Assembly: GCA_964561085.1 (NCBI GenBank)
Contig: CAZLNP010000002.1
Span: 1 to 55,032, forward strand
Length of the DNA stretch: 55,032 bases
Direction: 5' to 3'
Origin: an uncultured Candidatus Saccharibacteria bacterium
Lineage (GTDB): Bacteria; Patescibacteriota; Doudnabacteria; UBA920
The notes below the pieces were generated by a model. The model saw only the letters and a list, made by a program, of their open reading frames with translations, did not search any database and was not told where the DNA came from. Position 1 is the stretch's first letter, and each line of letters opens with the position of its first letter. Shown here piece after piece: positions 35,554 to 35,625 of this stretch. Made by a program: the position numbers and the translations under genes.

Positions 35554-35625
35554 TGGTGGAGTGAACGGGAGTCGAACCCGTAATAGCTGGGTGACTAGCC
35601 TGCTATGTAGACCGCTACTCACCCC
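35554..35625 (-). ncRNA. 72-nt tRNA-like RNA with alanine identity elements (resembles the tmRNA tRNA-like domain, no mRNA-like domain)
   Basis: GGGGTGA/TCACTCC acceptor stem with G3.U70, discriminator A, encoded CCA; T-arm ACGGG-TTCGACT-CCCGT; no canonical anticodon loop. Confidence 0.7.

Follow-up and report, generated by a model that had tools for sequence, protein, structure and literature searches.

A tRNA-like RNA and its cognate antisense RNA: a probable two-gene module at a strain-variable locus of a Candidatus Saccharibacteria bacterium

What kind of RNA is encoded by a 72-nt element that has the acceptor end and the T arm of a tRNA, and is called neither tRNA nor transfer-messenger RNA (tmRNA) by the standard programs? 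Such an element lies near mreB on the minus strand of a 55,032-nt stretch of DNA (contig CAZLNP010000002.1 of assembly GCA_964561085.1, an uncultured Candidatus Saccharibacteria bacterium placed by GTDB in Patescibacteriota; Doudnabacteria; UBA920), referred to as the window. An initial annotation, made from the letters alone, had proposed either a tmRNA stripped of its mRNA domain, that is, a tag-less or split tmRNA, or a new aminoacylatable tRNA mimic; the part concerning the mimic is supported as far as sequences allow, the part concerning tmRNA is not supported, and an aspartate-type loop as well as a separate antisense gene had been overlooked. The locus is, with high confidence, a genuine module of a tRNA mimic and its cognate antisense RNA, and probably, though with no great assurance, the two RNA genes form an accessory, RNA-only pair resembling a toxin-antitoxin system.

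The element, GGGGUGA GUAGCGGUCUAC AUAGCAGGCUAGUCACCCAGCUAU U ACGGGUUCGACUCCCGU UCACUCC A CCA, was confirmed in sequence, strand and position (35625..35554, minus strand), as were the 7-bp acceptor stem GGGGUGA/UCACUCC (G1-C72, G2-C71, G3.U70, G4-C69), the discriminator A73, the encoded CCA and the canonical T arm, ACGGG-UUCGACU-CCCGU (Table 1). Only 37 nt lie between the acceptor 5′ strand and the T arm, and they fold into a D hairpin followed by an arm of anticodon type: four pairs and a 4-nt loop make up the 12-nt D region (GUAG-CGGU-CUAC), the central arm, AUAGCAGG-CUAGUCAC-CCAGCUAU, has eight stacked layers, one of them an A.A mismatch, and the variable region is a single nucleotide. The cloverleaf has a folding energy of -24.5 kcal/mol, as compared to -24.8 for the free minimum; a different fold, pairing GGGUGA with UCACCC, was rejected because the acceptor strand of the closest homologue, GGGCCGG, cannot form it. 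A loose pattern for short tRNA-like elements matches once in the window, with no match expected from 100 shuffles. The central loop, which had been taken not to be a valid anticodon loop, is that of tRNA-Asp (CUGUCAC) with one inserted base; it reads CU-A-GUC-AC, with GUC at 35595-35593, and was identified through two matches of the motif GUCACCCA in viral contigs, both of which are tRNA-Asp genes.

A predicted antisense RNA directed at the anticodon arm

A predicted small RNA (sRNA) gene is located 43 nt downstream of the tRNA-like gene on the same strand and has its own promoter, TTGAAA-17-TAATAT, which begins directly after the CCA, and its own terminator. The first positions of the predicted transcript, 35513-35499, are perfectly complementary to 35607-35593 of the tRNA-like gene (15 of 15 pairs). 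As folded, the sRNA consists of little beyond this seed and the terminator; its linker, AAGCAACUGACCC, could pair in addition with the 5′ end of the tRNA-like RNA. In the predicted fold of a read-through transcript (-87.2 kcal/mol, z = -8.9), which includes the 15-bp duplex, the linker segments GC, ACU and ACCC (35486-35498) are pairable with G11-C12, A7-U9 and G2-U5 (35614-35624); a comparable block of the closest homologue, CCAGGACCC, stands opposite different positions, and this extra pairing may be a matter of chance. Tiny open reading frames (ORFs) in the trailer (MYTTSLL* in the window) were rejected, as they overlap the -10 box and occur in another frame in the homologue.

This closest homologue, L127, was found by synteny: the gene neighbourhood is the same, the adjoining cupin is 87% identical, and a homologous RNA module is present in opposite orientation. 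Its tRNA-like RNA, GGGCCGG...CCGGUCC-A-CCA, keeps G3.U70, A73 and CCA; its 8-nt loop, CUCGUCAC, has the design CU-C-GUC-AC and the A.A mismatch layer is the same, while in four anticodon-stem pairs both bases differ from those of the window, the changes being compensatory. Downstream, TTGCAA-18-TATGAT precedes an sRNA that starts with GACGAGCCUGUCUU and pairs with AAGAUAGGCUCGUC; where the shared targets of the two loci differ, at a single position (A to C), the sRNA has changed accordingly (U to G).

Beyond L127, scans of metagenomes with a pattern of GTCAC, T arm and TCCA returned at least 120 matches, many of which are noise, among it the 3′ ends of tmRNA genes; with synteny added, some 35 diverged related loci, at least, were recovered, whose shapes extend from the canonical cloverleaf to reduced ones such as that of the window. 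The set analysed comprises 38 tRNA-like elements of at most 76 nt with all seven pairs of the acceptor stem formed, the window, L127 and L133 being counted in with those from the matches listed; owing to the scan patterns, elements with GUCAC loops, GGG/CCC T stems, U70 or A73 are over-represented in it, and the counts over loci given below refer to the matches listed. Partners were sought as ungapped, G.U-tolerant duplexes within 350 nt downstream, with cut-off scores of 13 (strict) and 11, and were found at the strict cut-off for 27 of the 38 elements and at the lower one for 33. When the element sequences were reversed, none of the 38 reached a score of 13, and in the upstream flanks one did, so such partners do not arise by chance; among other tRNAs in the 1.76 Mb of loci compared, 3 of 757 have a complement on the same strand. 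The duplex always covers GUC and 10-20 nt located 5′ of it, and specificity is private to each locus: contiguous pairs with the own partner average 13.6, as opposed to 4.9 with the partners of other loci.

Whether the pairing is under selection was assessed from a gapless alignment of 31 loci as pseudo-hairpins, set against 500 shuffles and slid registers. Paired cells amount to 87.3% (58.5% in shuffles), a fraction inflated by selection, as the partners had been located by complementarity, which has to be counted against the module as proposed and is addressed by the controls imperfectly; double-change cells number 183 (61.5 in shuffles), and covariation scores 0.739 (shuffles: 0.191), which none of the 500 shuffles reach and which falls to 0.19 or less in slid registers. 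The cloverleaf itself was examined with a covariance model built from five members of reduced form, to which 16 members were aligned (plain MAFFT misplaces the 5′ ends): 87.9% of its cells are paired (63.8% in shuffles) in an alignment that leans to the structure of the model, with acceptor stems pre-selected for pairing and a D hairpin that aligns poorly (63% paired). Double-change cells number 95 as compared to 32, and the covariation score, 0.613 versus 0.171, is again reached by none of 500 shuffles; compensatory changes occur in six of the seven anticodon-stem pairs and in both T-stem pairs that the scan pattern did not fix. The window element scores 81.2 bits with this type of model (R1). 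By computation, selection thus acts on the cloverleaf and on the pairing between the 5′ end of the sRNA and the anticodon arm.

A decayed tRNA pseudogene, or the relic of a mobile-element attachment site with an inverted repeat arisen by chance, would suit the strain-variable slot in which the element lies; but fold and antisense pairing have been kept by compensatory changes in some 35 loci or more, the positions of promoter and terminator are conserved, and the repeat is inverted, 40-125 nt away, and placed over the anticodon arm and not the 3′ end, which is unlike attachment-site duplications. Such a relic is scarcely credible; for the window copy, with its inverted repeat 43 nt away and covering the anticodon arm, the attachment-site reading was rejected on the same grounds.

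The two genes also differ in their promoters. A sigma-70-like promoter matching at least 9 of 12 positions and ending 4-12 nt before the complement is present at 28 of 33 loci, as compared to 1.8% of random positions, and the tRNA-like genes have weaker promoters, matching on average 7.1 of 12 positions across the family; in the window, the consensus scan does not report the candidate given for the tRNA-like gene in Table 1, which is inferred from its letters. These promoters bear on a cis-acting control of maturation, in which one read-through transcript would be made whose trailer folds onto the anticodon arm and governs processing or folding. In the window there is no terminator between the two parts, and the stability of the read-through RNA with its 15-bp duplex, given above, agrees with such control. 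Against it stand the consensus-like promoter at the start of the complement in those 28 loci, the hairpins found between the two genes where the spacer is longer, and the five loci in which the partner is encoded on the opposite strand, convergently and with a shared terminator, where action could be in trans only; in most loci both genes are on the same strand. Cis-acting control is compatible with a module of two genes, but taken as the explanation it is very unlikely.

Could the sRNA be the effector instead? It might act on mRNAs or on the genuine tRNA-Asp and be titrated by the stable tRNA-shaped RNA in the manner of tRNA-spacer sponges, or the two might set each other's level through RNase III. 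The covarying duplex is equally compatible with such a sponge or decoy, and the strong sRNA promoter would fit it as well. However, outside the seed the sRNA has just a short, unconserved linker and the terminator, and the seeds are private to each locus, so that a common target in trans is not evident; further, the retention of G3.U70 and A73, of the GUC anticodon, of the T loop and of a D loop with GG would be left unexplained. This alternative is therefore considered unlikely. In the literature, of which our coverage is incomplete, no account was found of a tRNA-like gene whose anticodon is targeted by an antisense RNA of its own.

Among the family loci, one metagenome contig contains two modules in tandem (L244:1933-2004 and 2236-2306), with the loops UUAUCAC (AUC) and UUGUCAC (GUC), respectively, and each followed by a complement of its own, 16-18 nt in length. 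Only 4 of 31 members among the matches listed encode the CCA (the window, L127, L166 and L171), so an encoded CCA follows the habit of the host and is not a trait of the family.

Relation to tRNA-Asp and to tmRNA

In the window, ARAGORN reports two tRNA-Ser genes only, and Rfam at gathering thresholds the same two; neither calls the 72-nt element, and ARAGORN reports no tmRNA. With permissive Rfam thresholds, it reaches 11.6 bits with the tmRNA model (RF00023), by the T arm alone, and 15.3 bits with that of the permuted tmRNA (RF04321), the gathering score being 47 for both; YrlA or any other Y RNA is not matched, even at these thresholds. The 8-nt loop, the 8-layer stem and the 4-bp D hairpin with its 4-nt loop set the window copy apart from canonical elongator tRNAs (RF00005), the features of which are present in some relatives. 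The element is genuine; it is not an ordinary tRNA by standard detectors and not a tmRNA by models.

In favour of the tmRNA interpretation, G3.U70, A73, CCA and the T arm resemble the tRNA-like domain of tmRNA (ssrA), including the mitochondrial tmRNA of jakobids, which consists of that domain only; GGGG...CUCC-A-CCA, a reduced D region and the expected charging by alanyl-tRNA synthetase (AlaRS) are further likenesses, and weak Rfam matches exist. These marks are also found in tRNA-Ala and are not specific for tmRNA, and the matches, confined to the T arm, are far below the gathering score. Between the tRNA-like halves there is no resume codon, no tag ORF and no pseudoknot domain; the order of a permuted tmRNA does not apply either, as the 5′ and 3′ acceptor strands are in normal order within the 72 nt. 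In contrast to tmRNA, the element has a D hairpin, an anticodon-type arm with GUC and an antisense sRNA, and it is accessory and not universal: for a housekeeping gene it is too variable among strains, and some whose MreB is fully or 88-95% identical lack it. Its relatives are tRNA-Asp-like and have an anticodon. A miniature, tag-less or split tmRNA, working with SmpB in ribosome rescue, can thus be given only a very slight probability. Many of the relatives are called tRNA-Asp(GUC) by ARAGORN, and for that reason the lineage is traced to tRNA-Asp and not to ssrA.

The 8-nt design CU-C-GUC-AC recurs in L127, L141, L204, L218 and L231, and other members have a canonical 7-nt loop, CUGUCAC or UUGUCAC, and are called tRNA-Asp; in all, ARAGORN assigns the canonical-shaped members to tRNA-Asp(GUC), one to tRNA-Asp(AUC), and calls some reduced members too, but neither the window copy, L127 nor six others of the family. 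Judged from these sequences, the family is a continuum from full cloverleaves to reduced forms, derived from tRNA-Asp. Its D hairpins are short, with loops of the NGGN type, which by analogy would fit a G18-G19/T-loop elbow. With bacterial tRNA-Asp(GUC) the family shares the loop C/U-U-GUC-A-C and a T arm of the GCGGGUUCGAnUCCCGU type. The usual marks of E. coli tRNA-Asp are A3-U70 and G73; the element has G3.U70 and A73 instead, and the window copy differs further in its 8-nt loop, 8-layer stem, 4-bp D hairpin, 1-nt variable region and the antisense gene alongside.

Alanine identity and a possible mode of action

The initial proposal of a new aminoacylatable tRNA mimic is borne out as far as the sequences go: the fold covaries, and G3.U70 together with A73 is kept in L127, found by synteny, in L133 and L258, found without constraint on the acceptor, and in L244b, found with a generic tRNA finder. 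G.U occupies position 3-70 in 15 of the 16 aligned members. Among the matches listed, 33 of 35 members with G3.U70 have a partner (one of the exceptions has just 22 nt of flank), and no partner accompanies the three members in which a perfect acceptor stem contains A3-U70. For AlaRS, G3:U70 suffices, and tRNAs for other amino acids that carry it are charged with alanine and mistranslate (PMC11415595; PMC10543346).

From these features a mechanism can be proposed. The first gene would encode an RNA derived from tRNA-Asp, with an Asp-type loop, a canonical T arm, a GG-containing miniature D hairpin and, at its acceptor end, the alanine identity set (G3.U70, G2-C71, G4-C69, A73 and CCA); the second, with the stronger promoter, would encode the approximately 60-nt sRNA, the 5′ end of which is an exact complement of the anticodon together with the 5′ half of its stem. 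By invading the anticodon arm, the sRNA would mask the mimic or mark it for decay. Since AlaRS reads G3:U70 irrespective of the anticodon, free mimic would be charged with alanine and bring it to Asp codons; entering the ribosome there, it would cause Asp-to-Ala errors. A copy with an 8-nt loop, such as that of the window, might instead cause +1 frameshifting or bind to the A site non-productively. The pair would then resemble, in its behaviour, a toxin-antitoxin, addiction or defence module made of RNA only. A role of the mimic as a mistranslating toxin is proposed tentatively. It is doubtful whether the locus represents, in full, an undescribed class of RNA-only toxin-antitoxin or defence systems, in which an alanine-accepting mimic reads Asp codons or shifts the frame, an antisense antitoxin masks its anticodon, and loss of the labile antisense, be it with the cassette or because transcription is shut off when phages attack, leads to mistranslation throughout the proteome.

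Several observations weigh against this proposal. Toxicity, charging and decoding are all inferred from sequence. The ribosome may refuse an RNA of the shape of the window copy, with its 8-nt loop, 8-layer stem and 4-bp D hairpin, and AspRS could compete for charging via the GUC anticodon. U70 and A73 were fixed in the scan pattern, so that their conservation is tested weakly, in the four unconstrained cases named above. In L214, which has a partner, position 3-70 is A-U and the second pair is mismatched. A copy on a viral contig (L258:5486-5559; IMGVR_UViG_3300000927_000046) has G3.U70 and A73 and no partner within 500 nt on either side. A search for RNA runs containing the locus found none. 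As for the viral copy itself, it is an orphan on a phage-like contig, lies behind a terminator and has the loop UUGUCAC; the Logan contigs with the locus, from 4 runs, are of the same strain only and of low depth.

The intact alanine identity set, the non-canonical loop and arm lengths of the window copy and the proximity to the cell-wall elongation operon mreBCD-mrdA could also point to an alanine carrier without a decoding function, charged and used off the ribosome in cell-wall or lipid aminoacylation, or to an RNA that binds and tunes AlaRS, with the antisense as its regulator. The link to mreB is not conserved, however: the neighbours of the family are heterogeneous and close relatives lack the module. 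Moreover, a carrier could do without conservation of the GUC-A-C loop and without an antisense RNA directed at exactly this loop, which makes this explanation distinctly unlikely.

The toxin-antitoxin-like pair favoured here can be compared with known systems. In toxin-antitoxin systems, antisense RNAs control the toxin in type I, as in hok/sok, and RNA-RNA pairs make up type VIII, as in SdsR/RyeA and creTA. The likeness lies in the small accessory cassette of two genes, the strong antisense and weak target promoters, the private, covarying complementarity and the patchy distribution; of these, private specificity, promoter asymmetry and patchy, strain-variable occurrence are shown by computation for the module. 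The target there is the mRNA of a toxic peptide, whereas here it is a tRNA-shaped, probably aminoacylatable RNA, likened to a toxin from sequence alone. Natural mistranslating tRNAs, such as tRNA-ProX/ProA of Streptomyces (PMC10404621) or the tRNAs of the yeast CUG clade and human G3:U70 variants (PMC11415595), are likewise genome-encoded tRNAs in which charging identity and anticodon disagree, the disagreement predicted here being alanine at Asp codons; but a dedicated synthetase or the level of expression keeps those under control, and a private antisense RNA against the anticodon is not known for any of them. The pseudo-tRNA tRNA-Other of Bacillus cereus (PMC3399842) and Y-RNA-like YrlA mimics of bacteria are non-decoding or atypical tRNA-shaped RNAs as well, with regulatory roles and often at variable loci; they have other identity elements and no antisense partner. 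By analogy, the element would be closest in its working to natural mistranslating tRNAs combined with antisense-controlled toxin-antitoxin loci.

If the proposal is true, bacteria, among them ultra-small cells of the Saccharibacteria type, carry mobile RNA-only cassettes in which a mis-identified tRNA is held in check by pairing to its anticodon; a tRNA would then be a new kind of toxin, the anticodon arm a new target for an antitoxin, and the whole a natural case of regulated mistranslation. On a more cautious reading, cassettes of approximately 250 bp represent an undescribed family of structured RNAs with unusually clear intermolecular covariation. In either case, annotation pipelines may miscount decoding capacity where ARAGORN labels members as tRNA-Asp.

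Genomic setting and other tRNA-like elements

In the window, rseP, a Nudix gene, an archaeal-type proS and a cupin gene of 150 aa are located upstream of the module, and mreB-mreC-mreD-mrdA lie divergently downstream. The terminator of the sRNA may end the cupin gene, too.

Table 1. Coordinates in the window of the two RNA genes, their parts and the adjoining cupin gene
Feature	Position	Strand	Description	Basis
tRNA-like RNA gene	35554..35625	-	72 nt including encoded CCA	sequence, constrained and free folds, covariance model, family covariation
Acceptor 5′ strand	35625-35619	-		
D hairpin	35618-35607	-		
Extended anticodon arm	35606-35583	-		
8-nt anticodon-like loop	35591..35598	-	CUAGUCAC	loop of tRNA-Asp, CU-GUC-AC, plus a base inserted after U33
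Single U between anticodon arm and T arm	35582	-		
T arm	35581-35565	-		
Acceptor 3′ strand	35564-35558	-		
A73	35557	-		
CCA	35556-35554	-		
Target segment of the antisense RNA	35593..35607	-	CAUAGCAGGCUAGUC	anticodon and 5′ strand of anticodon stem
Weak candidate promoter of tRNA-like gene	35630..35656	-	TTGATG, 15-nt spacer, TAAGAT, 4 nt to G1	read from sequence
Antisense sRNA promoter	35520..35548	-	TTGAAA, 17-nt spacer, TAATAT, TG upstream of -10	consensus scan
Predicted antisense sRNA	35450..35514	-	approximately 60-65 nt; seed, short linker AAGCAACUGACCC, intrinsic terminator	sRNA fold
5′ seed of antisense sRNA	35499..35513	-	GACUAGCCUGCUAUG	start 6 nt past -10 box
Intrinsic terminator	35457..35485	-	AAAAAGCCGCCCAUAAUGGGCGGCUUUUU, 13 bp	terminator on both strands
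Cupin gene	34941..35393	+	150 aa; within strain-variable proS-mreB insert	Pfam Cupin_2

The slot between proS and mreB varies among strains, and the module is regarded as accessory because it is absent in close relatives and inverted in L127. In relatives with MreB 95%, 91% and 88% identical, proS is followed directly by mreB, and the cupin gene is absent in L260, L262 and the P0001 contig; in two others with identical MreB (L002 and L003), an ORF of 216 aa, for which no Pfam match was found, takes the place of cupin gene and RNA module. This ORF has its own consensus promoter (L002:125-775 and L003:656-1306, both minus strand, corresponding approximately to window 34935-35671), and the proS beside it is only 80% identical, as compared to 97% for mreB, which suggests that the slot is a recombination hot spot. 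The cupin gene is probably a cassette separate from the RNA module. A homologue 67% identical to it (L130:2124-2834) lies directly behind two tRNA-His genes, the first of which is degenerate in the 3′ strand of its acceptor, and a phage CRI-like replication gene is close by; from this arrangement the cupin gene itself looks like a mobile cassette. A survey of the genes neighbouring the family loci found no recurrent protein partner.

Further tRNA-like elements were met in the scans. A tmRNA-like D motif, GGTCNAC, was tried as a signature of the family and rejected, as a scan of genome contigs gave three matches, of which two are chance occurrences in coding DNA and the third is an unrelated gene of a Chitinophagaceae metagenome-assembled genome (DEHV01000073.1; L126:3757-3827, minus strand). 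This gene, 71-74 nt in length and standing alone between two terminators, starts with GGGGGAUGUUCUGGUCGAC, like the 5′ end of Bacteroidota tmRNA, ends with CCGGUUCGAUUCCGG-UAUCCUCC-ACCA and has G3.U70; no antisense partner was found within 500 nt. From its sequence, it looks like a mini-tmRNA reduced to the tRNA-like domain. Anticodon-less tRNA-like RNAs of 64-69 nt with G3.U70, A73, CCA and tmRNA-like 5′ ends occur on three viral contigs (L075:10175-10240, L077:2018-2081 and L117:449-514), and no antisense partner was found for them. What the loose scan for acceptor and T arm returned from viral contigs (L018, L048, L050, L067, L093, L115, L118, L121-L123 and others) was mostly Cys-type phage tRNA genes of 71-74 nt with the loop UGCA and a shortened D arm; they carry G3.U70, A73 and CCA, of which U70 and A73, but not G3, were fixed by the scan pattern, and they were set aside as unrelated to the family; none has an antisense partner. 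Two metagenome contigs (L183 and L200) contain an 82-nt tRNA-like gene starting GGACAAC, the T-arm and 3′-end region of which is repeated directly downstream over 19-21 nt; it, too, was rejected as a member of the antisense family, and the repeat resembles an integrase attachment site.

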